32,000 bases of DNA from Microcystis aeruginosa NIES-843 (GCF_000010625.1 NC_010296.1:5610001-5642000), one strand, 5' to 3'; numbered from the stretch's first letter, positions 1-30,824 are shown. A program made the numbers and translations. Notes: a model not told the origin generated them from the letters alone.

Positions 1-647
1 ACAAAGTCATGCAGCAGAGACAATCTATCTAACTCAAAAGTGTTTTTCTGGATAATTTGACCAGTGGAGTCAGACTTATAGAGATTTAAACTAACTTTGG
101 CACTGATTGTCACCCCGAAATTAAAAATCTCTCCTCTGGACAAATCTAGCTTAGGATGAGCGGAAAAAGTTTCCTTTGCTTGTAAGCTAGATAAATTATC
201 TAAGCCTAGGGTTTCTAAAGATTGTAAATCTAATTTATGGGGAAAACCCCCTTCCCAGAGAGCTAATAATTTATCGGGTAAAGCTAACACCGAGGTATTA
301 GCGGCATTTTTTACCTCTTTTCCCCAATTATTCCAAAAGAAGCCGGGGGCATTCATGCCATAATTAGGAAATAAATATTGATTAGCGGCACTTTCTTGCT
401 GATAACCGGCAGTCTGGACATAACGATAGGTGGCACTGACTCCCTTATCATGAAAATGTACAGCTAAAACTGCCCCATCTCCGTCAAACCAATGACCAAC
501 TTTCTGCTTACCTCTTTCTAATCTCCCCGGACCATTGCGATAGAGACTACCCCGCAATCCGTCAGGAATTTTCCCCGATAATAAGGTTAATTGCGTTTCA
601 GAAAATTCCACTGCTGGTTTTTCTAAAGATTTTGCCCAAGCTTTCAT
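1..647 (-). CDS. Carotenoid cleavage oxygenase (RPE65/CCO family), N-terminal ~215 aa; the 3' end lies outside the window
   Basis: Not in the ORF track. Hand translation of the reverse strand from ATG (645-647) runs to position 1 with no stop: MKAWAKSLEKPAVEFSETQLTLLSGKIPDGLRGSLYRNGPGRLERGKQKVGHWFDGDGAV...LLALWEGGFPHKLD...FSAHPKLD...LLHDF. The GHWFDGDG, ALWEGG, SAHPK and HDF motifs are typical of carotenoid oxygenases. Confidence 0.8.
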   Translation of the reverse strand, partial: MKAWAKSLEKPAVEFSETQLTLLSGKIPDGLRGSLYRNGPGRLERGKQKVGHWFDGDGAVLAVHFHDKGVSATYRYVQTAGYQQESAANQYLFPNYGMNAPGFFWNNWGKEVKNAANTSVLALPDKLLALWEGGFPHKLDLQSLETLGLDNLSSLQAKETFSAHPKLDLSRGEIFNFGVTISAKVSLNLYKSDSTGQIIQKNTFELDRLSLLHDF

Positions 648-762: not shown

Positions 763-1455
763 TTATAAAGTATCGGGATCAATTCCCAGATAACGGATAT
801 ATTCAGCTAAACGTTCAGCTTTAAGACGCTCTTGTTCTAATTGTAAACTTGCTTGTTCAGCTTTAAGACGCTCTTGTTCTAACCTTTGAGATAATTCGAT
901 AGAAGTCAAAAATTTCTGACCATCTAAACTATAAATTTCTAACTCATCTTCTCTCAATTCAAATCGGATATTTAACCGAGGACTAACCCATCCCTTAATC
1001 TCAGGTATAGAACTTAATAGTCCTTTCTGTCTCAACCATCCTTGAAAATTATGATAATCGGGATCATAGAGATAGTATTCTTCCACTCCATAACGTTGAT
1101 AAAAGAGGAGTTTTCGCTCCATTTCTTCTAAACTATTAGAAGGGGAGAGAATTTCAAAGACCACTTGAGGAGCGATGTTATCTTCTTGCCATTGTTTATA
1201 GGAACCCCTTCTTCCTTTCGGACGACCAAATACTACCATAACATCGGGAGCAACTGGTCCGGTAATTTTTTTATCTTGGACGGGATACCAGAGGAGATCT
1301 CCCGCAATAAAAACGTTAGGAGAATTAGCAAAGAGAATCTCAAGATTTTCTTTAATTTTCACGATCCATTCGTATTGTTCGGTATTATCGGCCATGGGTT
1401 TACCGTCACTATCGGGGTATTCAATATCTGGATCAATAGCTGGTGTAAAGGTCAT
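763..1455 (-). CDS. Uma2-family (DUF820) PD-(D/E)XK-fold putative endonuclease, tandem copy 1 (230 aa)
   Basis: ORF track. The core PDVMVVFG...VVFEILSPSN...E matches the Uma2/DUF820 pattern common in cyanobacteria. The C-terminal tail is a coiled coil, LEQERLKAEQASLQ. Confidence 0.8.
   Translation of the reverse strand: MTFTPAIDPDIEYPDSDGKPMADNTEQYEWIVKIKENLEILFANSPNVFIAGDLLWYPVQDKKITGPVAPDVMVVFGRPKGRRGSYKQWQEDNIAPQVVFEILSPSNSLEEMERKLLFYQRYGVEEYYLYDPDYHNFQGWLRQKGLLSSIPEIKGWVSPRLNIRFELREDELEIYSLDGQKFLTSIELSQRLEQERLKAEQASLQLEQERLKAERLAEYIRYLGIDPDTL
816..884. repeat. In-frame 42-bp repeat (about 1.6 units) in the 3' part of Uma2 copy 1
   Basis: CAGCTTTAAGACGCTCTTGTTCTAATTGTAAACTTGCTTGTT is followed by a partial second unit. 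Confidence 0.9.
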
Positions 1456-1476
1456 AATTTCTGCTCCTTTAAATAT

Positions 1477-2211
1477 TCATAAAGTCTCGGGATCAATTCC
1501 CAGAGAACGGATATATTCAGCTAAACGTTCAGCTTTAAGACGCTCCTGTTCTAATTGTAAACTTGCTTGTTCTAATTGTAAACTTGCTTGTTCAGCTTTA
1601 AGACGTTCTTGTTCCAATTGTAACCTTGCTTGTTCAGCTTTTTGGGATAACTCGATAGAACTTAAAAATTTCTGACCATCTAAACTATAAATTTCTAACT
1701 CATCTTCTCTCAATTCAAATCGGATATTTAACCGAGGACTAACCCATCCCTTAATCTCAGGTATAGAACTTAATAGTCCTTCCCGTCTCAACCATCCTTG
1801 AAAATTATGAGAATCCGGATCATAGAGATAGTATTCTTCCACTCCATAACGTTGATAAAAGAGTAGTTTTCGCTCCATTTCTTCTAAACTATTAGAAGGG
1901 GAGAGAATTTCAAAGACCACTTGAGGAGCGATGTTATCTTCTTGCCATTGTTTATAGGAACCCCTTCTTCCTTTCGGACGACCAAATACCACCATAACAT
2001 CGGGAGCAACCGGTCCAGTAATTTTCTTATCTTGGACGGGATACCAGAGCAAATCCCCCGCAATAAAAACGTTAGGAGAATCAGCAAAGAGAATCTCAAG
2101 GTTTTCTTTGATTTTCACGATCCATTCGTATTGTTCGGTATTATCGGCCATGGGTTTACCGTCACTATCGGGGTATTCAATATCCGGATCAATAGCTGGT
2201 GTAAAGGTCAT
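1477..2211 (-). CDS. Uma2-family (DUF820) putative endonuclease, tandem copy 2 (244 aa)
   Basis: Same protein as copy 1. I place the start at ATG 2209-2211 (MTFTPAID), which has AAGGAG 8 nt upstream, rather than the TTG start at 2229 in the track. Confidence 0.8.
   Translation of the reverse strand: MTFTPAIDPDIEYPDSDGKPMADNTEQYEWIVKIKENLEILFADSPNVFIAGDLLWYPVQDKKITGPVAPDVMVVFGRPKGRRGSYKQWQEDNIAPQVVFEILSPSNSLEEMERKLLFYQRYGVEEYYLYDPDSHNFQGWLRREGLLSSIPEIKGWVSPRLNIRFELREDELEIYSLDGQKFLSSIELSQKAEQARLQLEQERLKAEQASLQLEQASLQLEQERLKAERLAEYIRSLGIDPETL
1530..1640. repeat. In-frame 42-bp repeat with an extra 21-bp half unit in Uma2 copy 2
   Basis: Unit at 1530-1571, 21-bp half unit at 1572-1592, diverged unit at 1593-1634. 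Confidence 0.9.
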
Positions 2212-2232
2212 AATTTCTGCTCCTTTCAATAT

Positions 2233-2862
2233 TCATAAAGTCTCGGGATTAATTCCCAGAGAACGGATATATTCAGCTAAACGTTCAGCTTTTTGGGATA
2301 ACTCGATAGAACTTAAAAATTTCTGACCATCTAAACTATAAATTTCTAACTCATCTTCTCTCAATTCAAATCGGATATTTAACCGAGGACTAACCCATCC
2401 CTTAATCTCAGGTATAGAACTTAATAGTCCTTCCCGTCTCAACCATCCTTGAAAATTATGAGAATCCGGATCATAGAGATAGTATTCTTCCACTCCATAA
2501 CGTTGATAAAAGAGTAGTTTTCGCTCCATTTCTTCTAAACTATTAGAAGGGGAGAGAATTTCAAAGACCACTTGAGGAGCGATGTTATCTTCTTGCCATT
2601 GTTTATAGGAACCCCTTCTTCCTTTCGGACGACCAAATACTACCATAACATCGGGAGCAACCGGTCCGGTAATTTTCTTATCTTGGACGGGATACCAGAG
2701 CAAATCCCCCGCAATAAAAACGTTAGGAGAATTAGCAAAGAGAATCTCAAGGTTTTCTTTAATCTTCACGATCCATTCGTATTGTTCGGTATTATCGGCC
2801 ATGGGTTTACCGTCACTATCGGGGTATTCAATATCTGGATCAATAGCTGGTATAAAGGTCAT
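2233..2862 (-). CDS. Uma2-family (DUF820) putative endonuclease, tandem copy 3 (209 aa, no coiled-coil repeat)
   Basis: Same protein. Start moved to ATG 2860-2862 with an upstream AAGGAG. The C-terminal repeat is missing (SQKAERLAEYI). Confidence 0.8.
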   Translation of the reverse strand: MTFIPAIDPDIEYPDSDGKPMADNTEQYEWIVKIKENLEILFANSPNVFIAGDLLWYPVQDKKITGPVAPDVMVVFGRPKGRRGSYKQWQEDNIAPQVVFEILSPSNSLEEMERKLLFYQRYGVEEYYLYDPDSHNFQGWLRREGLLSSIPEIKGWVSPRLNIRFELREDELEIYSLDGQKFLSSIELSQKAERLAEYIRSLGINPETL

Positions 2863-2883
2863 AATTTCTGCTCCTTTCAATAT

Positions 2884-3660
2884 TCATAAAGTCTCGGGAT
2901 TAATTCCCAGAGAACGGATATATTCAGCTAAACGTTCAGCTTTAAGACGCTCCTGTTCTAATTGTAAACTTGCTTGTTCAGCTTTAAGACGCTCCTGTTC
3001 TAATTGTAAACTTGCTTGTTCAGCTTTAAGACGCTCCTGTTCTAATTGTAAACTTGCTTGTTCAGCTTTAAGACGCTCTTGTTCTAACCTTTCAGATAAC
3101 TCAATAGAAGTCAAAAATTTCTGACCATCTAAACTATAAATTTCTAACTCATCTCCTCTCAATTCAAATCGGATATTTAACCGGGGACTAACCCATCCCT
3201 TAATCTCAGGTATAGAACTTAATAGTCCTTCCTGTCTCAACCATCCTTGAAAATTATGAGAATCCGGATCATAGAGATAGTATTCTTCCACTCCATAACG
3301 TTGATAAAAGAGGAGTTTTCGCTCCATTTCTTCTAAACTATTAGAAGGGGAGAGAATTTCAAAGACCACTTGAGGAGCGATGTTATCTTCTTGCCATTGT
3401 TTATAGGAACCCCTTCTTCCTTTCGGACGACCAAATACTACCATAACATCGGGAGCAACTGGTCCGGTAATTTTTTTATCTTGGACGGGATACCAGAGGA
3501 GATCTCCCGCAATAAAAACGTTAGGAGAATTAGCAAAGAGAATCTCAAGATTTTCTTTAATTTTCACGATCCATTCGTATTGTTCGGTATTATCGGCCAT
3601 GGGTTTACCGTCACTATCGGGGTATTCAATATCCGGATCAATAGCTGGTGTAAAGGTCAT
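2884..3660 (-). CDS. Uma2-family (DUF820) putative endonuclease, tandem copy 4 (258 aa, longest coiled coil)
   Basis: ORF track. Same core, with three and a half 14-aa LEQERLKAEQASLQ units. Confidence 0.8.
   Translation of the reverse strand: MTFTPAIDPDIEYPDSDGKPMADNTEQYEWIVKIKENLEILFANSPNVFIAGDLLWYPVQDKKITGPVAPDVMVVFGRPKGRRGSYKQWQEDNIAPQVVFEILSPSNSLEEMERKLLFYQRYGVEEYYLYDPDSHNFQGWLRQEGLLSSIPEIKGWVSPRLNIRFELRGDELEIYSLDGQKFLTSIELSERLEQERLKAEQASLQLEQERLKAEQASLQLEQERLKAEQASLQLEQERLKAERLAEYIRSLGINPETL
2937..3088. repeat. In-frame 42-bp repeat, 3 full units plus a partial unit, in Uma2 copy 4
   Basis: Units at 2937-2978, 2979-3020 and 3021-3062 are identical. A partial fourth unit follows. Confidence 0.95.
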
Positions 3661-3799
3661 AATTTATACTCTGAGGTTATTTGTCTGAAAATTATAATTC
3701 TAGCAGTGAGGTTAACTTTCCCCTGTAGTCCCAAAATAACATCGCCAATAACGTTGATCAAAAGGTTTGTGTACTTTTGTTAAAAAGTAAAAGTTTTTT

Positions 3800-3939: not shown

Positions 3940-4410
3940 ATGATGACCGCTCTCTACGAGGAAGATTTTGTTCTCTGGACGGAAAAAACCGCCGAACTGT
4001 TAAAGCGAAAAGAGTTTGACCGGGTGGACTGGGAAAACCTGATCGAGGAAGTGGAGTGCATGGGAAAAAGCGAGAGACAGGCAATAACGAGTTTATTAAC
4101 CGTTTTAATCGAACACTTACTCAAACTATCCTATTGGGAATCGGAAAAAGAACGGAATGCCCGTCACTGGATAGTGGAGATCGCGGCTTTCCGAGCGCAA
4201 TTAGAACAAAAAATAGATAGTGCCACCCTCGTCAACCATGCCCGCGATTCTTGGGACAAAGCCTATGTAACCGCCAGAAAATCCCTGATTAATGCGCGTA
4301 TAGTCGATAAAAATGCGATTCCCCTAGAGTCTATATTCACCCTCGAACAGGTATTAGACGGGGATTGGTTCCCCATCGATATCGAACCTTTTCTGGAAAC
4401 CCGCCCATAA
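3940..4410 (+). CDS. DUF29 domain protein (156 aa)
   Basis: YEEDFVLWTEKTAELLKRKEFDRVDWENLIEEVECMGKSERQAITSLLTVLIEHLLKLSYW matches the DUF29 pattern (YExDFxxW...LDxENLIEEIExLGxSE). Confidence 0.8.
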   Translation: MMTALYEEDFVLWTEKTAELLKRKEFDRVDWENLIEEVECMGKSERQAITSLLTVLIEHLLKLSYWESEKERNARHWIVEIAAFRAQLEQKIDSATLVNHARDSWDKAYVTARKSLINARIVDKNAIPLESIFTLEQVLDGDWFPIDIEPFLETRP

Positions 4411-6065: not shown

Positions 6066-6219
6066 GGAGGCAGGGGGCAGGGGGCAGGAGTCCGTTTTTG
6101 TAACGGGGATTTATGCCCCGCTCCAAAAACTTTTCGCCTTAAGGCGAGGTTTTAGACCTGATTTTGTCGATAATATTACTCAAAACTCAGTGGTTAGTGG
6201 TCACTAGCCCCTTCTAACC

Positions 6220-6247
6220 GATAACTGATAACTGATAACTGATAACT
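6220..6247. repeat. (GATAACT)x4 heptamer array, the inverse complement of the CAGTTAT family
   Basis: Read directly. Confidence 0.9.
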
Positions 6248-6521
6248 GGTTAAGGCCTAGCATAAAAACTGAAAAAAACTCGAAAGTTAATAATAATTTA
6301 AAGAATTTGACGCCGGAGAATAATCAGATTTTGGCTGATAGCTAAACCCTGACGGCTGGCAAAATAACAGAAATTCTTAAGAAGCTAAAGGGTTTAAATC
6401 CCCAGAGAGAGCATTGTAGAATGAAGCGGTTAGTTATCTACTAGAAGATAGGACTTTTCCGTCCCAGCGAAACAATTCTATTCAAATCTTTAACCCAAAT
6501 TGCCAAGGAGACTGAGTTTTA

Positions 6522-7881: not shown

Positions 7882-7892
7882 CCCCTTTCTAA

Positions 7893-7916
7893 CTGATAAC
7901 TGATAACTGATAACTG
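7893..7916. repeat. (CTGATAA)x3 heptamer array abutting the cbiQ start
   Basis: Read directly. Confidence 0.9.
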
Positions 7917-7921
7917 AATAA

Positions 7922-8695
7922 ATGCTACATATTGCTACTTTTTCTTGCGAAAATGAGTGCCAAAATTTCGGTTTTTGGCAGAGACTCGCGCCCCATACCC
8001 GGGTTTTAGTTACTCTTTTGTTAGTTTTTGCCACAGCCTTAACGCCGAATGGTAGCTGGGAAACTTGGGGGATTTACGGATTAGGATTAATTATTTTAAT
8101 TCTGATCAGTCGGGTGGCTATTCCCGTACTTTTACAAAGAGTAGCGATCGAATTTGTCTTTATCGGTGTGGTTTTATTGGGAACTCTTTTTCGTGATGGC
8201 GGCGAAATTCTTTGGTCTTGGGGATTTTTGCGGATAACTAGCGAGGGATTGCTAGTTTTAGGCAGTGTCGCCCTAAAAGCTTTTCTCTGTCTTTGTACGG
8301 TCAATATTCTGGTTTTAACGACAGCAATTCCCGACCTGTTGCAAGCATTAGTTACCCTGAAAACTCCCCCTTTATTGGTGGCAATTTTGGCTTCTATGTA
8401 CCGTTATCTAGCTGTTTTGATCGCTGAATTTAATTCCATGCGAAGGGCAGCAATTGCGCGCAATTTAATGAGTAGTCCCCGATGGCAACGGCTGCTAGTG
8501 GGACACATGATCGGCGCTTTATTTATCCGTACCTACGAACGTGGCGATCGCATTTATCAAGCCATGTTATCGAGGGGTTACACCGGTTCCTTGCCCTCTG
8601 TACAGGTTCCCCAAAGCAAGCTGAAAGATTATCTCGCTATAATTTGCATAGTAATTCTGATCCTCTGGGGTCAAATGGTACATCTACTCAGGTAA
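7922..8695 (+). CDS. cbiQ: ECF transporter transmembrane (T) component CbiQ (257 aa)
   Basis: Multi-TM protein with the ...RRAAIARN... and YERGDRIYQAMLSRGY region typical of CbiQ/EcfT. Operon context supports the call. Confidence 0.75.
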   Translation: MLHIATFSCENECQNFGFWQRLAPHTRVLVTLLLVFATALTPNGSWETWGIYGLGLIILILISRVAIPVLLQRVAIEFVFIGVVLLGTLFRDGGEILWSWGFLRITSEGLLVLGSVALKAFLCLCTVNILVLTTAIPDLLQALVTLKTPPLLVAILASMYRYLAVLIAEFNSMRRAAIARNLMSSPRWQRLLVGHMIGALFIRTYERGDRIYQAMLSRGYTGSLPSVQVPQSKLKDYLAIICIVILILWGQMVHLLR

Positions 8696-8709
8696 AAGTC
8701 TCGTTTTTC

Positions 8710-9516
8710 ATGCACCACAACCCGATTTTTATTGAAAACCTAGTTTATACCTATCCTGACGGCACAGAAGCGTTAAAAGGTATTAATTTAGCCATTGAAG
8801 CTACGGAAAAGGTAGCTTTGGTCGGGGCAAATGGATCGGGAAAATCCACCTTATTACTGCATTTTAACGGTATTCTCCCGCCGCAAACGGGTAAAATCAC
8901 CGTCGGTCCCTACCAAGTTAAACCGGAGAATTTAGAAAATATCCGCAATTTTGTCGGTTTAGTCTTCCAAAACCCCGACGATCAGCTATTTATGCCCACT
9001 GTCTGGGAAGATGTGACTTTTGGACCGATGAATCAGGGAATTCGGGGAGAGGATTTAAAACATCGCTGTCATCATGCTTTACACGCGGTGGGATTGGATT
9101 CCCAGCATTACGGTAAGAGAAACAGTCAGAATCTATCGGGGGGTGAAAAAAAACGCGTGGCGATTGCGGGGGTTTTAGCCATGTTGCCCCAGGTCTTAGT
9201 TTTTGATGAACCTAGCGCCCAACTGGATCCCCGATCCCGTCGGCAATTAATACAACTATTGGCCACTTTACCCCAAACTCAAGTGATCGCCACCCACGAT
9301 CTCGATCTGGCTTTAGAACTATGCGATCGCACGGTGGTGTTAAGTCGTGGTCAGGTGGTGGGAGAGGGAGAAACCGCTAAGATTTTAAGTAATCGGGAAT
9401 TTTTGGAAGAACACGACCTCGAAACACCCCTTTGTTATAGTCGTCCCTACTGTGCGATCGCTGATGCGCCCTCACAAGTCAGTGATCAGTTATCAGTTAT
9501 CAGTGATCAGATGTGA
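8710..9516 (+). CDS. cbiO: ECF transporter ATPase CbiO (268 aa)
   Basis: Walker A GANGSGKST, signature LSGGEKKRV, Walker B VLVFDEPSAQLD and an H-loop ATHD. The start is set at ATG 8710, 15 nt after the cbiQ stop. The 8482 start in the track would overlap cbiQ by more than 200 nt. Confidence 0.85.
   Translation: MHHNPIFIENLVYTYPDGTEALKGINLAIEATEKVALVGANGSGKSTLLLHFNGILPPQTGKITVGPYQVKPENLENIRNFVGLVFQNPDDQLFMPTVWEDVTFGPMNQGIRGEDLKHRCHHALHAVGLDSQHYGKRNSQNLSGGEKKRVAIAGVLAMLPQVLVFDEPSAQLDPRSRRQLIQLLATLPQTQVIATHDLDLALELCDRTVVLSRGQVVGEGETAKILSNREFLEEHDLETPLCYSRPYCAIADAPSQVSDQLSVISDQM
9480..9510. repeat. CAGTGAT/CAGTTAT heptamer array inside the 3' end of cbiO
   Basis: CAGTGATCAGTTATCAGTTATCAGTGATCAG encodes the C-terminal tail SDQLSVISDQ. 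Confidence 0.9.
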
Positions 9517-9627
9517 GTTTTCAGTTCACCGATTACTCTTTACTGGACGGCTACGCCGTGCCTTTGGCAACACTGAAAAAAAGCTCCCTTTTCCCCTCTC
9601 ATAGACAGTCTTAACGAGTGATTTAGA

Positions 9628-9823
9628 TAGGGTATGCTGAATAAATCTAAAAACCTTGTTTGGTAAGACTTTTAGACTTTTTGTCAATCAAAAAGTACCA
9701 GATATGGGAGTGATCGGGGGGAAAATTCCGGGACTTTTTCCCTGCAAATTAGGTAATTGACCTCCTCAAAATCGGTAAAACCCCACACCCCACACCCTGT
9801 CCCCACGAAAAACTTTTTCAGCA
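9628..9823 (+). repeat. Copy A of a ~200-bp dispersed (MITE-like) repeat
   Basis: Aligns by eye along its whole length with 21348-21556: TAGGGT(A/C)TGCTGAATAAATCTAAAAACCTTGTT...TTTTGTCAATCAAAAAGTAC...GGGAGTGATCGGGGGGAAA...AATTAGGTAATTG...GGTAAAACCCCACACCCCACACCC...GAAAAACTTTTTCAGCA. Confidence 0.85.
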
Positions 9824-11662: not shown

Positions 11663-11702
11663 CTGATAACTGATAACTGATAACTGATAACTGATAACTG
11701 AT
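11663..11702. repeat. (CTGATAA)x5.7 heptamer array abutting the stop codon of the GH57 gene
   Basis: Read directly. Confidence 0.9.
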
Positions 11703-14363: not shown

Positions 14364-14405
14364 TTACTGATTACTGATTACTGATTACTGATTACTGATT
14401 ACTGA
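14364..14405. repeat. (TTACTGA)x6 heptamer array
   Basis: Read directly. Confidence 0.9.
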
Positions 14406-16731: not shown

Positions 16732-16816
16732 AGACCACTTCGTGCGCGTTGCGGGGGGAGATGGGGAGAATAAATCAAAGCAATCTCCTATCTCCTGAAT
16801 ACTGACTCGGAGAATA

Positions 16817-16858
16817 CTGATAACTGATAACTGATAACTGATAACTGATAACTGATAA
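16817..16858. repeat. (CTGATAA)x6 heptamer array, ending 11 nt before the rnpB 3' end
   Basis: Read directly. Confidence 0.9.
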
Positions 16859-16869
16859 AGGAGAGAGTC

Positions 16870-17366
16870 AGACATAAGCCGAATTCTGTATTTCCCAACA
16901 GCAGTAAAATCGCTTTTACCTTTGTTGGAATAGAGGTTATCTATCTGGGATAATTGTCACCAATTACCTCAAGCGGTTCCTAAGAACGGGACAGGAAAAA
17001 GACCAACCTTTGTCCCTCCACCTTGCTCCCCACCGGGGTTTACCGAGCCAGTACCTCTCGATACTGCTGGTGCGCTCTTACCGCACCTTTGCACCCTTAC
17101 CCCCAATCAGTTATCAGTTATCAGTTATCAGTTATCAGTGGAAAGTTATCAGTGGAAAGTTATCAGTTATCAGTGAATTTACTTTCGTTACTGTTTACTG
17201 ATCACTGTTTACTAATCACTGAAAAAAGGGGCGGTATTTTTCTGTGGCACTATCCTCACGCTCGCGCGCACTGGACGTTATCCAGCAAGTGTGGTCTTTC
17301 GGGAGTTCGGACTTTCCTCGCAATCATTGATCAAATGATTCCGCAACCTCTAGACCAACTCTCTCC
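16870..17366 (-). ncRNA. rnpB: RNase P RNA (bacterial type A), about 497 nt
   Basis: The reverse strand reads GGAGAGAGUUGGUCUAGAGGUUGCGGAAUC...GCGAGGAAAGUCCGAACUCCCGAAAGACC...GUGCCACAGAAAAAUACCGCC...GGUAAGAGCGCACCAGCAG...GGUAAACCCCGG...ACAGAAUUCGGCUUAUGUCUGACUCUCUCC. It contains the universal P4 strands GAGGAAAGUCCG and ACAGAAnnCGGCUUA. The 5' GGAGAGAGU pairs with the 3' ACUCUCUCC to form P1. Confidence 0.9.
17108..17221. repeat. Heptamer-repeat block (CAGTTAT family and TTACTGA-like units) inside rnpB
   Basis: Read directly. On the RNA strand it sits immediately 3' of the conserved ACAGAAAAAUACCGCC, which is the P12 position. Confidence 0.85.
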
Positions 17367-17422
17367 TATTCTCTAGTATGACTTACCAGAGACTCGATCG
17401 CTCATATATCCTAGTCAATAAT

Positions 17423-17544: not shown

Positions 17545-18372
17545 ATGTCGATCGCTCTAAACGTTAACATTAAAGGTAATGGCTATCCGATCCTCTGTCT
17601 GCACGGTCATCCCGGTTCGGCAGCCAGTATGTCTGTATTTACCGATCATTTTTGCCAACGCTGGCAAACCCTGGCCCCGGATCTGCGCGGCTACGGTAAA
17701 AGTCGTTATCGCCGCGATTTTCAGCTAGAAGAACATCTAGAGGATTTAATCGGGCTGCTCGATCGCCAAAAAATCCAGCAATGTTTAATTCTCGGTTGGT
17801 CTTTGGGGGGTATAATCGCACTGGAATTAGTATTGCGGCATCCCGATCGCTTTCCTGGTTTAATTCTAGTGGCCTCGGCCGCGCGGCCTTGGGGTAGTCA
17901 TCCTCCTATCACCACCACAGATTTAGTTTTGACGGGGATGGCGGCAATTCTCAATCAGATTAAACCGGGATGGTGTTGGAATATTGATACTTTTGCTCGT
18001 CGTTCCCTGTTTCAGTACCTTTTTTCACAACATCAAGCGATCGCCTATCAATATCTCGCTCAAGATGCTGTTCCTGCCTACTTACAAACTTCTCCCTTTG
18101 CCGATCGCGCTTTAAATCGGGCTTTAAAAAAAGGTTACAATTGTTTAAAATCTCTTGACAAAATTACAATTCCCTGCCTGGTTCTGGCGGGGGCAAATGA
18201 TCGCCATATTACCAATGCCTCTAGCCAAGAAACGGCCGAAAAACTGAAACTGTCTCGGTGGAAATGTTACCCAGATACGGCCCATCTGTTCCCCTGGGAA
18301 ATCCCCGACTTAGTTTTAGGGGACATTGATAATTGGTTAGCGGAGCATTTTAGCGATAAACTGGCAGAGTGA
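17545..18372 (+). CDS. Alpha/beta-fold hydrolase (275 aa)
   Basis: HG-type oxyanion motif LHGHPGS, nucleophile elbow GWSLGG and a C-terminal ...DTAHLFPWE with the catalytic His. Confidence 0.8.
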   Translation: MSIALNVNIKGNGYPILCLHGHPGSAASMSVFTDHFCQRWQTLAPDLRGYGKSRYRRDFQLEEHLEDLIGLLDRQKIQQCLILGWSLGGIIALELVLRHPDRFPGLILVASAARPWGSHPPITTTDLVLTGMAAILNQIKPGWCWNIDTFARRSLFQYLFSQHQAIAYQYLAQDAVPAYLQTSPFADRALNRALKKGYNCLKSLDKITIPCLVLAGANDRHITNASSQETAEKLKLSRWKCYPDTAHLFPWEIPDLVLGDIDNWLAEHFSDKLAE

Positions 18373-19504
18373 AGTGAAAACTACTGCCGTGGTCAGGGAC
18401 ACTATCCACCCAAATTTGACCGTAGTGGGCGCGAATAATCTTGCGACAGACCGATAAACCGATGCCATAACCTTCTTTACCCTCATCCCGTTTGAGACGC
18501 ACATGACCCTCAAAAATATGCTCTTGTTTTTCTTCGGGGATGCCGGGGCCGGTATCACTGATGCTCACCTGTACTTTTTGAGTAGTACGATGGAGGACAG
18601 AAAGGGTAATTTCGCCGCCGGCGGGGGTATATTTGATCCCATTCTCCAGGAGATTAATAATCACCTGTCGGATTAACTCCTCATCAGCATAGACGGGGGG
18701 CAGATCTTGGGGGATATCGCTTTGGAAAATTAAAGTCTTTTCCTGAAAAGTATCGGTAAATTGAGACAAAATTTCCTGACAGAGAGATTGCAGATAAAAT
18801 TTACTCTGGTGGAGAGTGAATTGCGCCGCCATGCTCTTAGAAGCTTGTAGAATATCTGTGATCAAACGGTTCATAATCCGAAACTGTTTGCGGGCCTGTT
18901 GGTGCAGTTGTTCTCGTAATTGCAGACTGCGCTCAGTATCCGGTTGATGATAGGCTAATTCTAGGGTTTCCACAGCGATGGAAGCAGCGGTAAGAGGACT
19001 GCGTAAATCGTGGGCTAACATAGCCAAAATTTGGTCTTTAAATTTTAATTGTTCTAATAATTCTTCCTTTTCTTGTTTGAGACGAAAAACCTCATCGGCG
19101 ATGCGGATGAGTTCGCCCGAATGTTCCACCTCTTGAAGTTGTGCATCCTCAGCGTGATGATTTTTGACCTCCTCTTTAATCGCTTTTTGCCAACGTACCA
19201 ACCATTTTTTAAACTGTTCCACCAGATTACTGCCTGCGAGGGTATGACGGGGACCAGGGGCGATTTTGACCAGGGCCGGGGTAGCTACAAGGCGAAAATG
19301 TTCGACTAAATGAGGTTGCTGGCGAATTTCGATGATCTGTAGGTCAATTGGGTAATCAGACTTTAAAGACTGGAGATAGGACTGAATTTGACGGATAATT
19401 TCTTGAGAACTGGGACGGTCATCAACAAACAGCAAAAGTTGAATCGAGAGAGGCGTTGTCGTCTCTCTTCCTAAAGCAGTCAGTGGCTCGTTAGATGGGA
19501 GCAT
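18350..19504 (-). CDS. sasA: Adaptive-response sensor histidine kinase SasA (KaiB-like N-domain, HisKA and HATPase; 384 aa)
   Basis: The N-terminal thioredoxin/KaiB-like segment LLLFVDDRPSS...LVATPALVKIAP, the H-box LAMLAHDLRSPLT, an N-box LLENGIKYTP, and G-boxes DTGPGI and GYGIGLS. Confidence 0.85.
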   Translation of the reverse strand: MLPSNEPLTALGRETTTPLSIQLLLFVDDRPSSQEIIRQIQSYLQSLKSDYPIDLQIIEIRQQPHLVEHFRLVATPALVKIAPGPRHTLAGSNLVEQFKKWLVRWQKAIKEEVKNHHAEDAQLQEVEHSGELIRIADEVFRLKQEKEELLEQLKFKDQILAMLAHDLRSPLTAASIAVETLELAYHQPDTERSLQLREQLHQQARKQFRIMNRLITDILQASKSMAAQFTLHQSKFYLQSLCQEILSQFTDTFQEKTLIFQSDIPQDLPPVYADEELIRQVIINLLENGIKYTPAGGEITLSVLHRTTQKVQVSISDTGPGIPEEKQEHIFEGHVRLKRDEGKEGYGIGLSVCRKIIRAHYGQIWVDSVPDHGSSFHFTLPVYR

Positions 19505-21556: not shown

Positions 21557-21676
21557 AACCCTATCTACAAAAATAGTACCCAACTTATCGAAAATTTGGG
21601 TTAAAACCCCGTCGTTTTACGACGGCTTTTCCTGATTTTTAATGTAGCACTTAAGAACTTCCAGTGGCGCACCTCT

Positions 21677-21730
21677 CAGTTATCAGTTATCAGTTATCAG
21701 TTATCAGTGGGTAAGTTATCAGTTATCAGA
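21677..21730. repeat. (CAGTTAT)n heptamer array with one interruption
   Basis: Read directly. It ends CAGTTATCAGATGTGAGTTTT, the same junction seen at 9501-9520. Confidence 0.9.
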
Positions 21731-21909: not shown

Positions 21910-21972
21910 ACCGACTTGGCATTATTGACAGACCTAGTTAGAATAGAGTACAGACACAAATATCTTAACCCA

Positions 21973-23214
21973 ATGAAAGCGAGGTATCAATACCGTATTT
22001 ACCCAACAGACCAACAAAAGAGGCTTTTGTCTCAATTGTTCGGGTGTGTGCGCATTGTCTGGAACGATACCTTAGCTTACTGTCAAGAACTCTATCGACA
22101 AGGGGAGAAAAAGCCAAAATATACCGAGTTATCTAAAAGACTAACTCAAATTAAAAAGACGACAGAAAAAGTCTGGCTGACCGAGGTTTCTTCTATCCCT
22201 TTACAACAGTCTTTGAGAGACTTAGAGACAGCCTATTCTAACTTTTTTGCATCTTGCAAGGGAGAGAGAAAAGGAAGAAAAGTAAAACCTCCTAAATTTA
22301 AGAAGCGTAAATCTAAACAATCAGCGAGATTTACTGACAATGGTTTTACCATCAATCAATATCACGTTACTTTAGCCAAAATCGGTGATTTAAGAATCGT
22401 TTGGAGTCGCCCATTACCCTCTAAACCTTCTAGCGTTACCGTGATTAAAGATGCAGCAGATCGCTATTTTCTCAGCTTTGTTGTCGAGATTCAGCCCGAA
22501 ATACTTCCTAATAACGGGGAGTCCGTGGGAATCGATCTAGGGATTGCTACTTTTGCGACTCTCTCAACAGGGGAAAAGATAGACGCACCGAAACCGTTAA
22601 AGAAACAATTAAAACGGCTAAGAAAGGCACAGAAAAACCTTTCTAGAAAGCAAAAAGGAAGTAACCGACGGGAAAAAGCTAGGAAACGAGTAGCTAAAAT
22701 CCACGCAAAGATTAAGGACACTCGTACTGATTTCTTGCAGAAACTATCCACTAGAGTTGTTCGTGAAAATCAAACGATAATTTTAGAGGATTTAAACACA
22801 TCGGGAATGGTTAAAAATCGTAAGTTATCCCGTGCCATATCAGACTTAGGATGGCGTTCTTTCCGAGATATGCTATCGGCAAAATCTGATAAATATGGGC
22901 GTAATTTTCGGATAATTTCCCGATGGGAGCCAACGTCTCAGCGATGTTCCTGTTGTGGGAATATTGGCGGGAAAAAAGCGTTAAATATCCGTGAGTGGGA
23001 ATGTCTTTTCTGTGGGACTTTTCATGATCGAGACGTGAACGCCGCAATTAATATCAAGGTCGCCGGTGGGCAATCGGAGACTTTAAACGGGCGTGGAGGA
23101 CAGCATAAGACTTCTGTTAAAGAAGCAGCATCTCGTGAAGCGTCAACCCAGCGGTCGGTCGTTCAATTAAGTTTGTTTGATCTGCCGGTCATCACCGTCC
23201 GGCCCCGGCGGTGA
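21973..23214 (+). CDS. tnpB: IS200/IS605-family TnpB (OrfB) RNA-guided endonuclease-like protein (413 aa); no tnpA is present
   Basis: The N-terminal YQYRIYPTDQQKRLLSQLFGCVRIVWN, RuvC-I GIDLGI, RuvC-II IILEDL, a zinc finger CSCCG...CLFCG and RuvC-III HDRDVNAAINI. The start is set at ATG 21973 rather than TTG 21916. Confidence 0.85.
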   Translation: MKARYQYRIYPTDQQKRLLSQLFGCVRIVWNDTLAYCQELYRQGEKKPKYTELSKRLTQIKKTTEKVWLTEVSSIPLQQSLRDLETAYSNFFASCKGERKGRKVKPPKFKKRKSKQSARFTDNGFTINQYHVTLAKIGDLRIVWSRPLPSKPSSVTVIKDAADRYFLSFVVEIQPEILPNNGESVGIDLGIATFATLSTGEKIDAPKPLKKQLKRLRKAQKNLSRKQKGSNRREKARKRVAKIHAKIKDTRTDFLQKLSTRVVRENQTIILEDLNTSGMVKNRKLSRAISDLGWRSFRDMLSAKSDKYGRNFRIISRWEPTSQRCSCCGNIGGKKALNIREWECLFCGTFHDRDVNAAINIKVAGGQSETLNGRGGQHKTSVKEAASREASTQRSVVQLSLFDLPVITVRPRR

Positions 23215-25187: not shown

Positions 25188-25343
25188 TATATAGCAATTC
25201 CCATAGTTGTGAGGTACAGAGTCTTAGGTTTTGAGGAGTCAGGATTCAGGATTCAGGATTCAGGATTCAGGAGTCAGGAGTCAGGATTCGGGATTCAGGA
25301 GTTAAGATTTTGGTGTACCTCATGAGATTGGGAAACGCTATAT
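25188..25343. repeat. Palindromic element: imperfect inverted arms of ~30 bp flanking an 11-unit (AGGATTC/AGGAGTC) heptamer array
   Basis: Heptamer array at 25234-25310. TGAGGTACA (25210-25218) pairs with TGTACCTCA (25314-25322). The outer arms, TATATAGCAATTCCCATAG versus ATTGGGAAACGCTATAT, are partly complementary. Confidence 0.75.
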
Positions 25344-28345: not shown

Positions 28346-28484
28346 GAAAGCGTGAATTTGAATAAGGGTTCGGTAAAATTTGACCACTTAAACAAAGATT
28401 AGAAGGAGTGCTGGATTTAGCTGAACCGACAGCCATTTGTTGCATCTCTGGTCCCTAAAACAAAACATCGGAGATGCCACTACT

Positions 28485-30824
28485 ATGAGCCAGTCAATTC
28501 CAGACCGTCAATCTCAGGAACAAGATAACCTGATTAAAGATACTAACGTTAGCGGTGATTTAATCTTCGCTCCCGTTCAAATTGGTACTAAAATTGAGAC
28601 TCAAATTGTCCAGATTTCAGTTGCTAAAGTTACGCAGCAACCATTGATTAAGGATTCACCTTATCAAGGACTGAAAAGATTTAATGTCAAAGACAGAGAT
28701 CGCTTTTTCGGTAGAGATAAGTTAATTGCCAGATTATTTGAGGCGGTGAATCGGAGCAACTTGAGTTTAGTGTTAGGGGCTTCTGGAAGCGGCAAGTCCT
28801 CTGTGGTGCGTGCGGGGTTAATTCCTGAGTTGGAAAAATCTCTGGAGTCTCAAACATTTTATGACTTCATCTTTACACCCAATCAAGATCCCTTTGAGTC
28901 CCTATATCGGTGTTTACTCAGTGAGGAGAAGAATTATAACTTCAGTAAATCAGACGCTAAGATTGCCCTAGAAGCAAAGGCAAATACGTTAAAAGAAGTG
29001 ATTCGCACCTTAAGGAACGATGGGGAACGGTGGCTAATTTTTGTCGATCAATTTGAGGAATTGTTCACTATTTGTGACGATCCAGATAAACGCAAAAATT
29101 TTATTTCAGGTCTGGTTGAAGTTGCTAAGTTTGGTGATAGTTCTGTCAAGATTGTACTGGCAATGCGGGCTGACTTTCTGGAGCAATTGAGTTTCTATCC
29201 CGATTTAGGTGCTATTGCCAATCAAAATAATATTCATCTGGTCACTGAAATGTTTCCAGATGAACTGCGACAGGCGATTGAGCAACCAGCAGCCAAGCAT
29301 GGGGTCGTGTTTGAAGAAGGGTTAGTTGAACAAATTATCAAGGAACTTGATGGACAAAAAGGTTATCTTCCCTTATTGCAATATACCCTGAATTTGCTTT
29401 GGAAAAGTGAATGCCAAACTCGCGGTGCTGATGGTCGCTTTGAGATCGAAGACCGTATCTTAAACAAGAAAAGTTATGCAGCGTTAGAGGGGGTAAGGGG
29501 AGCATTGCAAAAGCGGGTCAACGAGATATACAGCAATTTGAACCAAGACGAACAGACAACCACTAAGCAAATATTTTTGAAGCTAGTTAATTTTGTTGAT
29601 ACTGATTCAGGCAGTAGAGCAGTGAGCAGACGAGCTTATCGAAATGAATTTGTCGGTAAATCAGTAGAAAAGCTCCTCGAAAAGTTCATTAATAAAGAAA
29701 AGTTGCTAGTTAGTAGTAGCGAGTATTCTAGTACGGAAGAAATGCAAGCGAGTGACAGCAAGCGTCTGAAACAACTTCCAACCGTAGAAATTGCCCATGA
29801 AATTTTGCTCTCATCTTGGGATGAGTTAAAAGACTGGCTTGAAGAGGAAAAGGATGCAATTATCTTCAAAAATTGGTTGGCTGATGAGACAATACGGTGG
29901 CAAAAAATTCGTTTAGAGGATGAGTCTAAAGCTCAGGATGAACTCTTGAAGGGCTATCAATTGGCTAAGGCTGTAGAGTTGAGAAAGAACGATGCTTTTA
30001 AAAATCTTGATGGCTTAAGACCAGAAGAAAGTGAATTCATTGATGCCAGTGTCAATTGGCAACAGCAACAAGAGCAGCAAAAGAAAAACCGACGACGAAA
30101 TACCATTGTAAGCCTCGCTACTTTTTCAGTCATTTCTTTGGGGCTGGCCAGCTTTGCAGGAATTCAACTATTGAATGTTAAGAAGGCTAAACAAAGTACA
30201 CAAGAAGGACTTATTCGCTCTGCTTGGATAAGTCTTAAGCCATCAAAATGTGATGAAAAAGAATCTATCCGTGGATTTCGCTATCTCTACTGTATTATCA
30301 AAGAATTTGATGTTTATCGTCAATTAATTTTGAGTTCTGACTTACTTATTTTTAAAGAGGGTGGTCCCCATGATCGTAAAGCTTTGAATCTTGACAGTGC
30401 TGACAAGTTTGGTTATTACAACCCAGAATTTTTAGAATGGATTCAAAAGAAAGCCATTAACCCTAATGACGGCAAATTTAAGGAGCCAATCCAACTAGCT
30501 TACAATGATAAAATTAAAGTAGTAGCAAGATCTCTCTACCAAACACATAAAATTTTGTTCCCAACTCCTGAAGGATCTGATGAGTTTAAAGCAATCAAGA
30601 AGAAATATCAAGATCACCTTATAAAACAGGATCTTCCAAAGTATTATTTCGAGTACAAGTTCTGGGAACTCGTACAGAAGGAGGATACCCCTAAACACAT
30701 AACAGTGTCATCAGCAGGTTTTTGGGTTCGGCGCTCTATTGATGGAACAGAAAAACAGTTTTTTGATATCTTGACACAACTTCTGGAAATCTATGATTCA
30801 GAGTGGCTGAGTGAACACGAGTGA
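28485..30824 (+). CDS. STAND-like P-loop NTPase with one TM helix and an unassigned C-terminal domain (779 aa from ATG 28485; 795 aa if from TTG 28437)
   Basis: SPYQGLKRFNVKDRDRFFGRD, Walker A GASGSGKSS (from nt 28776), Walker B LIFVDQFEELF (from nt 29034), MRADF, LPLLQYTLNLLW and EIAHEILLSSWDELKDWLEEE. A TM helix TIVSLATFSVISLGLASFAGIQLL lies at nt 30102-30173. GGAGA sits ~10 nt upstream of ATG 28485. Confidence 0.8.
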   Translation: MSQSIPDRQSQEQDNLIKDTNVSGDLIFAPVQIGTKIETQIVQISVAKVTQQPLIKDSPYQGLKRFNVKDRDRFFGRDKLIARLFEAVNRSNLSLVLGASGSGKSSVVRAGLIPELEKSLESQTFYDFIFTPNQDPFESLYRCLLSEEKNYNFSKSDAKIALEAKANTLKEVIRTLRNDGERWLIFVDQFEELFTICDDPDKRKNFISGLVEVAKFGDSSVKIVLAMRADFLEQLSFYPDLGAIANQNNIHLVTEMFPDELRQAIEQPAAKHGVVFEEGLVEQIIKELDGQKGYLPLLQYTLNLLWKSECQTRGADGRFEIEDRILNKKSYAALEGVRGALQKRVNEIYSNLNQDEQTTTKQIFLKLVNFVDTDSGSRAVSRRAYRNEFVGKSVEKLLEKFINKEKLLVSSSEYSSTEEMQASDSKRLKQLPTVEIAHEILLSSWDELKDWLEEEKDAIIFKNWLADETIRWQKIRLEDESKAQDELLKGYQLAKAVELRKNDAFKNLDGLRPEESEFIDASVNWQQQQEQQKKNRRRNTIVSLATFSVISLGLASFAGIQLLNVKKAKQSTQEGLIRSAWISLKPSKCDEKESIRGFRYLYCIIKEFDVYRQLILSSDLLIFKEGGPHDRKALNLDSADKFGYYNPEFLEWIQKKAINPNDGKFKEPIQLAYNDKIKVVARSLYQTHKILFPTPEGSDEFKAIKKKYQDHLIKQDLPKYYFEYKFWELVQKEDTPKHITVSSAGFWVRRSIDGTEKQFFDILTQLLEIYDSEWLSEHE

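Follow-up and report, generated by a model that had tools for sequence, protein, structure and literature searches.

Introduction

Uma2 genes (COG4636, DUF820) belong to the most expanded and least understood gene families of cyanobacteria, and in Gloeobacter they represent more than 2% of genes (PMC551604). Feder and Bujnicki described COG4636 in 2005 as a proliferating, possibly selfish nuclease family, the active site of which is a PD-EXX-K variant with two invariant carboxylates and a lysine that has moved to the following helix (PMC551604). The same study reported tandem duplications, among them a run of four close relatives side by side in Crocosphaera watsonii WH8501, termed such duplications 'rare' within the family and proposed nuclease-induced breaks as their driver (PMC551604). 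Makarova, Wolf and Koonin considered Uma2 in 2009 to be a likely solo toxin, found mostly in cassettes of paralogous genes, and counted 114 adjacent COG4636-COG4636 pairs (PMC2701414). In Microcystis, Uma2 genes have been reported inside the hox operon and CRISPR-Cas loci. Here we describe an array of four near-identical Uma2 genes at positions 763-3660 of a 32,000-nucleotide (nt) stretch of the Microcystis aeruginosa NIES-843 genome (NC_010296.1:5610001-5642000; hereafter, the window), to which an earlier note, made from the sequence alone, had drawn attention.

Tandem gene arrays in general evolve in concert through unequal crossover and gene conversion. The Microcystis array is like other such arrays in its strain-variable copy number, within-genome homogenisation, mosaic haplotypes and divergent terminal copy beside a unique flank, and unlike them in having at most four units, each with a private length variant in a 3' repeat tract. 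Among described Uma2 loci, the Crocosphaera run is the closest: compared by description, it belongs to the same family, has the same PD-EXX-K variant, consists of adjacent close copies in a cyanobacterial chromosome and has also been read as tandem duplication of a proliferating nuclease gene. That study was made without a strain comparison, and copy-number polymorphism, gene conversion and a uniform 21-nt spacer bearing a Shine-Dalgarno (SD) sequence are not described there (PMC551604). As in the published cassettes (PMC2701414), Uma2 adjoins Uma2 and an antitoxin-like partner is absent at the Microcystis array too; set beside those cassettes by description, the Microcystis copies have cores that are 96-99% identical and evolve in concert.

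The earlier note had called tandem amplification of this gene unusual, which does not stand given the duplications already published, including a run of the same size (PMC551604). Tandem arrays of Uma2 genes, like the selfish-nuclease hypothesis, have been on record since 2005; the array is a further, well-documented case and in itself opens no new question. As a small locus with clear limits in a bloom-forming species, it illustrates concerted evolution and change of copy number.

Results and Discussion

A tandem array with strain-variable copy number

We consider it probable that the array is a strain-variable tandem amplification, within Microcystis, of a single ancestral Uma2 (COG4636/DUF820) gene. 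Open reading frame (ORF) calls bear out four co-directional, head-to-tail Uma2 genes, all on the minus strand and all with an intact reading frame (Table 1). We number them by array position from the 5' end of the coding strand, such that positions 1 to 4 are copies 4 to 1 of the earlier note. Among the copies 7-20 positions differ within the first 567 nt, and 300-nt blocks at spacings of 756, 651 and 798 nt are 95-100% identical, a resemblance beyond chance.

Exact look-up of the neighbouring DUF29 protein recovered the syntenic locus, in the order DUF29 gene, array, carotenoid oxygenase gene, from ten assemblies, and two further examples came from other searches; retrieved loci are labelled with L-numbers (L002, L088 and so on). 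This comparison among strains, which had been proposed from the sequence, returned a decayed remnant, one, three or four copies. The chromosome of Microcystis sp. BLCC-F210 (L009) has one copy of 244 amino acids (aa), draft assembly L091 has three (209-244-230 aa), and four are present both in a 5.87-Mb complete chromosome, AP019314.1 (L089; 209-209-244-230), and in draft assembly L090, the layout of which (258-209-244-230) is that of the window. A metagenome scaffold (L008) reads 244-209-(N gap)-230-type, draft assembly L088 contains one internally deleted remnant, and in four draft contigs (L092, L093, L094 and L097) the contig end falls inside the first copy. All 15 copies in the four full arrays examined are intact. 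The L088 remnant (9246-9721) joins query positions 1-110 to 429-571 and these to the tail. L095 differs in what lies upstream of its DUF29 gene, where a Uma2 gene is absent.

The closest protein matches of the window are from Microcystis. A scan of GTDB genomes, in which other genera were also sampled, returned at least one close Microcystis locus among the matches listed, and a metagenome scan for the exact junction returned only 4 short contigs.

Repeat collapse or expansion during assembly could in principle have produced a wrong copy number, and the locus is indeed the assembly trouble spot that the earlier note expected: short-read assemblies break in the first copy (the four contigs above), L008 has an N gap, and 179 'partial' proteins form one cluster, in agreement with assembly breaks at the array. 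The copies can nevertheless be told apart by their length and by 7-20 single nucleotide polymorphisms in the core, the window's layout recurs in the independent assembly L090, the complete chromosome L089 also carries four copies, and all four array proteins of the window co-occur on one public record of 5,842,795 bp. Since two other assemblies carry four copies, one of them with the exact layout, the four-copy state is real and an artefact is extremely improbable. Because the break point recurs in Microcystis assemblies, binning and annotation should expect truncated 'partial' Uma2 calls.

Recombination among the copies

Variant sites in the array are mosaic, as previously noted from the sequence. 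FLTSIELS.RLEQERL and LRQ are common to copies 1 and 4, LRREGLL and FLSSIELSQKAE to copies 2 and 3, and GINPETL to copies 3 and 4; PDYH, LRQK and IRYLGIDPDTL are confined to copy 1. These patterns had been taken to reflect repeated unequal crossover or gene conversion, and that reading is upheld, although the evidence within the window is weak (13 informative sites, a minimum number of recombination events (Rmin) of 2, p=0.04) and becomes strong only with other strains. When 19 copies from 7 assemblies are compared, 49 informative sites yield an Rmin of 14 by the four-gamete test and p<0.0005 by a permutation test of the pairwise homoplasy index (PHI) type; Rmin is 11 when the comparison is limited to the four full arrays.

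The 3' ends of the genes, including the length of the C-terminal arm, hold their array position across strains, whereas the 5' cores have no fixed place: two core haplotypes (…ACCCACAA… and …GTGCGTGG…) change their array position from strain to strain. Every copy in L091, and likewise in L008, shares one strain-specific core, such that copies within a genome differ at 0-4 sites (L091, three copies) or 3 sites (L008), compared with 6-19 sites between genomes for the same tail type. Hence, copy-number polymorphism at a syntenic locus is found together with homogenisation or mosaicism within genomes, the combination by which concerted evolution is recognised. Position 4 retains the ancestral 3' end, comprising DPDTL, a TAA stop and the unique 3' flank.

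The ratio of nonsynonymous to synonymous substitution (dN/dS), a comparison likewise called for from the sequence, lies between 0.10 and 0.31 for pairs of copies, with dS of 0.04-0.12, when calculated over the core and the 19-aa C-terminus, outside the repeats. These values point to purifying selection on all copies. The 3' 12 nt of the spacer derive from the 5' untranslated region (UTR) of the first copy, and the strong SD sequence was thus inherited with the duplicated unit; the 5'-UTR string GGAGTATAAATT is kept in some spacers of L089 and L090.

The array is best accounted for by homology-driven amplification, with concerted evolution, of a Uma2 gene that is intact and under selection and the arm of which gains and loses heptads, probably by slippage. 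The duplicated unit consists of the coding sequence, approximately 9 nt of 3' flank and approximately 12 nt of 5' UTR, and because the UTR part carries the ribosome-binding site, the same spacer of 21 nt stands at every junction. Exchange between copies, through unequal crossover and gene conversion, keeps altering copy number (remnant, 1, 3 or 4) and also reshuffles or evens out the copies over their 5' ~570 nt. At their 3' ends the copies remain distinguishable, with slippage in 21- and 42-nt repeats probably adding or removing whole heptads.

Several observations weigh against this account, or against parts of it. Were the amplification purely neutral, one would not predict that all four copies are under purifying selection and that tail types hold their place in the array across strains; the copies may therefore be non-redundant. 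The two core haplotypes diverge by dS of ~0.1, which exceeds what a very recent duplication should show; recombination with other strains may therefore have brought in some of the variants. Both the promoter and the polycistronic transcript discussed below are predictions. With respect to the protein, nuclease activity of any Uma2 family member was not found in the literature searched, and the solved structures that match it are all structural-genomics entries without an assigned function.

An alternative origin is that a selfish Uma2 nuclease cuts DNA near its own gene and that recombinational repair leaves tandem and dispersed copies. The same hypothesis has been proposed for the family, along with its tandem duplications (PMC551604), and it would accommodate a dispersed two-gene locus that carries the same ~35-nt 5' UTR (L002), the location of the array among housekeeping genes with mobile-element context absent, and the quick shifts of copy number between strains. 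However, the borders of the array show no target site, repeat or sign of a break; once two copies exist, ordinary homology-driven unequal crossover accounts for all variants; and orthologues in other genera are, among the matches listed, mostly single-copy and syntenic, unlike an actively proliferating element. We regard a selfish origin as distinctly unlikely.

The dispersed second locus in Microcystis (L002 9127-10756, and L003-L007) comprises two Uma2 genes, of 230 and 251 aa, separated by a 181-nt spacer. Its core DNA is ~88% and its tails ~95% identical to those of the array, with which it shares ~35 nt of 5' UTR and the same two tail types.

Genes, spacers and transcription

Table 1. Positions of the Uma2 genes, spacers, repeats, candidate promoter element and locus boundaries in the window.
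Feature	Coordinates	Strand	Details
Uma2 gene, position 1 (copy 4)	2884..3660	-	258 aa; putatively promoter-proximal and transcribed first; ORF, Pfam Uma2 61.4 bits
Uma2 gene, position 2 (copy 3)	2233..2862	-	209 aa; minimal arm, 2 heptads
Uma2 gene, position 3 (copy 2)	1477..2211	-	244 aa; arm of 7 heptads, 'KAEQARLQ' type
Uma2 gene, position 4 (copy 1)	763..1455	-	230 aa; arm of 5 heptads
Spacer	2863..2883	-	21 nt; ATATTGAAAGGAGCAGAAATT, AAGGAG SD
Spacer	2212..2232	-	21 nt; identical to 2863-2883
Spacer	1456..1476	-	21 nt; ATATTTAAAGGAGCAGAAATT, one substitution at 1471
42-nt tandem repeat	2934..3087	-	3.7 copies, 99% match (TRF); encodes EQASLQLEQERLKA, two heptads
21-nt repeat in 244-aa gene	1547-1635		TRF
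21-nt repeat in 230-aa gene	813-879		TRF
Candidate -10 box	3691..3696	-	perfect TATAAT hexamer, 31 nt upstream of first ATG; sequence reading
DUF29 gene, upstream boundary	3940..4410	+	divergent; Pfam DUF29, E 3e-43
Carotenoid oxygenase (RPE65-family) gene, 5' part, downstream boundary	1..647	-	translation

The earlier note described the spacers as identical 21-nt sequences with an AAGGAG SD; the length and the SD hold, the identity is not exact, since two of the three are identical and the third differs by one base, giving the consensus ATATT[G/T]AAAGGAGCAGAAATT. Tight, SD-bearing spacers and the absence of terminator-like sites between copies of the array are consistent with the operon layout suggested previously, and the four genes are probably read as a polycistronic mRNA from one promoter upstream of copy 4, an mRNA that may run on into the carotenoid oxygenase gene. 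The TATAAT hexamer upstream of position 1 could serve all four genes as their -10 box; a good -35 box is absent and the assignment is therefore provisional. The promoter consensus scan demands both hexamers and so does not list it; sites that the scan does list, inside the array, read TTGAGA-18-TATAGT. The 60 nt upstream of the array are identical across L088-L091.

Downstream, the carotenoid oxygenase gene lies 115 nt past copy 1 on the same strand as the array, and its full-length orthologues in L008 and L088-L091 are annotated as PF03055 RPE65. Long antisense ORFs of 105-137 aa lie on the plus strand opposite each copy (1165-1482, 1921-2238, 2572-2889 and 3370-3783). They recur because the underlying DNA is repeated; we found no coding evidence for them as genes and take them to be shadows of the repeated DNA.

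Predicted fold and active site of the protein

All four copies score 59.7-61.4 bits with Pfam Uma2 (PF05685), for which the cut-off is 27. The AlphaFold2 model of the 258-aa copy, with a predicted local distance difference test score (pLDDT) of 83, has an alpha/beta core at residues 21-176 followed by a single helix at 185-250 (pLDDT 94-97), and Foldseek matches to DUF820 structures in the PDB (9y1l, 6okh, 3ot2 and 1wdj; E 1.5e-7 to 5e-5, probability 1.00) indicate a restriction-endonuclease-like fold, in support of the earlier assignment to Uma2 and the PD-(D/E)XK fold; a sequence search of the PDB gave only weak matches (E 3e-4 and worse). The PD...(E)ILSPS core that had been read as conserved is present as APDV...FEILSPS in all four copies. 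Residues D71 (in APDV), E101 (in FEILS) and K115 do not vary among 65 aligned homologues or among the four copies and fit the PD-EXX-K active-site variant (PMC551604), with K115, judging by its spacing, probably the migrated lysine. The protein is predicted to be a metal-dependent nuclease with this variant.

A C-terminal arm in whole heptads

The copies differ mainly in a C-terminal helical arm: their lengths of 209, 230, 244 and 258 aa reflect 0, 3, 5 and 7 heptads beyond the shortest form, giving arms of 2, 5, 7 and 9 heptads (in the 258-aa copy, the nine are counted from the ..IEL anchor to the G of LGINP). Tandem Repeats Finder (TRF) and translation show that these differences are encoded by 21- and 42-nt tandem DNA repeats (Table 1). 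The tail had been described as diversifying; it is the heptad number that varies and substitution is not accelerated, since the low dN/dS outside the repeats indicates that the tail changes by unit number.

Whole heptads also separate homologues elsewhere. The Microcystis cluster at 90% identity contains proteins with lengths of 209, 216, 223, 230, 237, 244 and 258 aa, and an architecture of Uma2 core, heptads rich in E, Q, R and A, and a conserved RAERLAExLRxLGIDP end is shared by many cyanobacterial genera and Chromatiaceae. Arm length was taken as the distance between a BLAST-anchored core residue and the glycine of the terminal motif. It is divisible by seven without remainder in 109 of 111 word-index homologues (98%) and in 47 (90%) of the 52 more diverse representatives at 50% identity in which both anchors were located (98 of the 150 representatives could not be anchored). 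Arms span 14-98 residues, or 2-14 heptads, across cyanobacteria and purple sulfur bacteria, and single heptads separate syntenic orthologues in Nostoc. Ala or Leu fills one register position in 94% of cases, and the a/d partner of that position is hydrophobic in only 47%; a clear Leu stripe is confined to the last two heptads (RAERLAExLRxL). We found no mention of a coiled coil or heptads in Uma2 proteins in the literature searched, and the heptad-quantised arm with its conserved terminal module may be new, being the only element of the locus of which this might be said.

The conserved, amphipathic RAERLAExLRxLGIDP module most likely mediates dimerisation or docking, and together with the heptad arm it offers a concrete handle on how Uma2 proteins assemble or dock. 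Among ~2,000 ORFs of the loci fetched, to which the search was confined, the C-terminal motif occurs only in Uma2 proteins. In Capilliphycus salinus (chromosome; L086 10937-11680), the orthologue is directly followed by a gene presumed, from its differing N-terminal sequence, to belong to a different Uma2 subfamily. This second gene ends in the same C-terminal module, RAEKFAERLRELGVNPDEL, and the module thus appears to be common to different Uma2 subfamilies.

Selection might preserve arms of 2, 5, 7 and 9 heptads as sub-functionalised isoforms, with conversion homogenising the core. Tail types are conserved in position across strains (...209-244-230) while the cores shuffle, arm length is quantised in heptads across genera, and the paralogous locus L002 has the same two tail types, all of which would be expected of such isoforms. 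Persistent tails, however, need no selection, since the last copy adjoins a unique flank and length differences block conversion tracts, and slippage of 21-nt units produces heptad multiples by itself, although register may be selected as well. Moreover, the gene at position 1 encodes 258 aa in two strains but 209 aa in a third, and single-copy strains exist (L009). We therefore find sub-functionalised isoforms quite improbable.

A further suggestion, which we put forward as highly doubtful, is that the arm may serve as a molecular ruler and that the Microcystis array is a set of selected, graded isoforms. Arm length would then determine the reach of the nuclease domain, or its geometry, relative to whatever the C-terminal module binds, be it the partner in a dimer or some other structure of the cell. 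Were this true, repeat slippage combined with gene amplification would be a natural route to diversify nuclease geometry. A possible parallel is found in type I restriction, where the number of repeats in the helical spacer of HsdS (EcoR124I versus EcoR124II) changes the spacing of the DNA target. The two may be alike in having a short amino-acid repeat in a long helical spacer of a nuclease-associated protein, the length of which shifts by whole units; an effect on target spacing is known for HsdS only, and the resemblance is no more than a lead.

Genomic context and possible roles

Candidate roles for the Uma2 protein are in genome conflict or defence, or as a selfish nuclease. A conflict or defence-type nuclease is, weakly, the most likely. 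The proteins match three models of the PADLOC candidate system PDC-S03 (E 1.3e-12, 1.5e-10 and 1.5e-6); these models have no curated cut-off and the matches cover only the Uma2 core.

If such a role is extended to the array, amplification could be adaptive: more copies would supply more of a nuclease that acts in defence or stress, which might be favoured in certain bloom lineages, for instance those under attack by phages. The PDC-S03 match (E 1e-12), the presence of Uma2 genes within Microcystis CRISPR-Cas loci (PMC11855584, PMC5647855) and the response of Microcystis Uma2 transcripts to nutrient shifts (PMC13485200) all lean this way, as do the intact copies, the strong SD before each downstream copy and purifying selection. 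Yet PDC-S03 is only a candidate system, on which we found no paper in the literature, the array lies outside any defence island, with housekeeping genes as its immediate neighbours, and the gene has decayed in one strain (L088); a search of 50,697 phage records gave no homologue, a result that bears on defence in neither direction. Adaptive dosage is in our view unlikely, and we retain homology-driven amplification with concerted evolution as the explanation of the array.

Other contexts in which Uma2 might operate were also considered. A toxin-antitoxin arrangement is not apparent: an adjacent small antitoxin gene is absent and the 21-nt spacers hold no extra ORF. No partner gene is conserved across genera, the recurring neighbours reflecting Nostoc synteny only, and no cognate DNA methyltransferase was found among the window ORFs scanned. 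The DUF29 gene was rejected as a functional partner because it adjoins the array only in Microcystis, where it is divergently oriented. A phage origin was likewise rejected, given no tblastn match in the phage records, and the plasmid search gave only 4 matches. The nearest genes (DUF29, dCMP deaminase, M48 peptidase, CbiMNQO and carotenoid oxygenase) are of housekeeping type.

Other features of the window

The window has 43.6% G+C, 16 HIP1 sites and many intergenic heptamer repeats. Tandem runs of 7 nt lie between genes at, for example, 6215-6248, 7890-7917, 11663-11702, 14364-14405, 16816-16858, 21676-21729 and 25234-25309, with units of the TAACTGA/CTGATAA family, the G-rich GGGGTGT/ACCCCAC and AGGATTC. 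A bacterial RNase P RNA gene is present at 16860-17362 on the minus strand (Rfam RF00010, 243.6 bits) and measures 503 nt against a model of 367 positions. The match encloses 9.9 copies of ATCAGTT at 17106-17174 and a 14-nt repeat at 17190-17221; repeats thus seem to have been inserted within rnpB. A 117-aa ORF on the plus strand (17023-17376) overlaps rnpB and is probably spurious.

Other genes in the window include a large nSTAND1 NTPase gene at 28437-30824 (+; Pfam PF20703, E 8e-108), of the STAND type often tied to conflict systems, and an IS605-family OrfB/TnpB-like gene at 21916-23214 (+) with HTH_OrfB_IS605, OrfB_IS605 and Cas12f1-like TNB domains. A histidine kinase with an N-terminal KaiB domain is encoded at 18350-19504 (-) and resembles the clock output protein SasA. 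Finally, a 344-aa ORF at 8482-9516 (+) overlaps the CbiQ gene (7922-8695); the ABC-ATPase of relatives is 258-260 aa long, and its true start is therefore probably further downstream.

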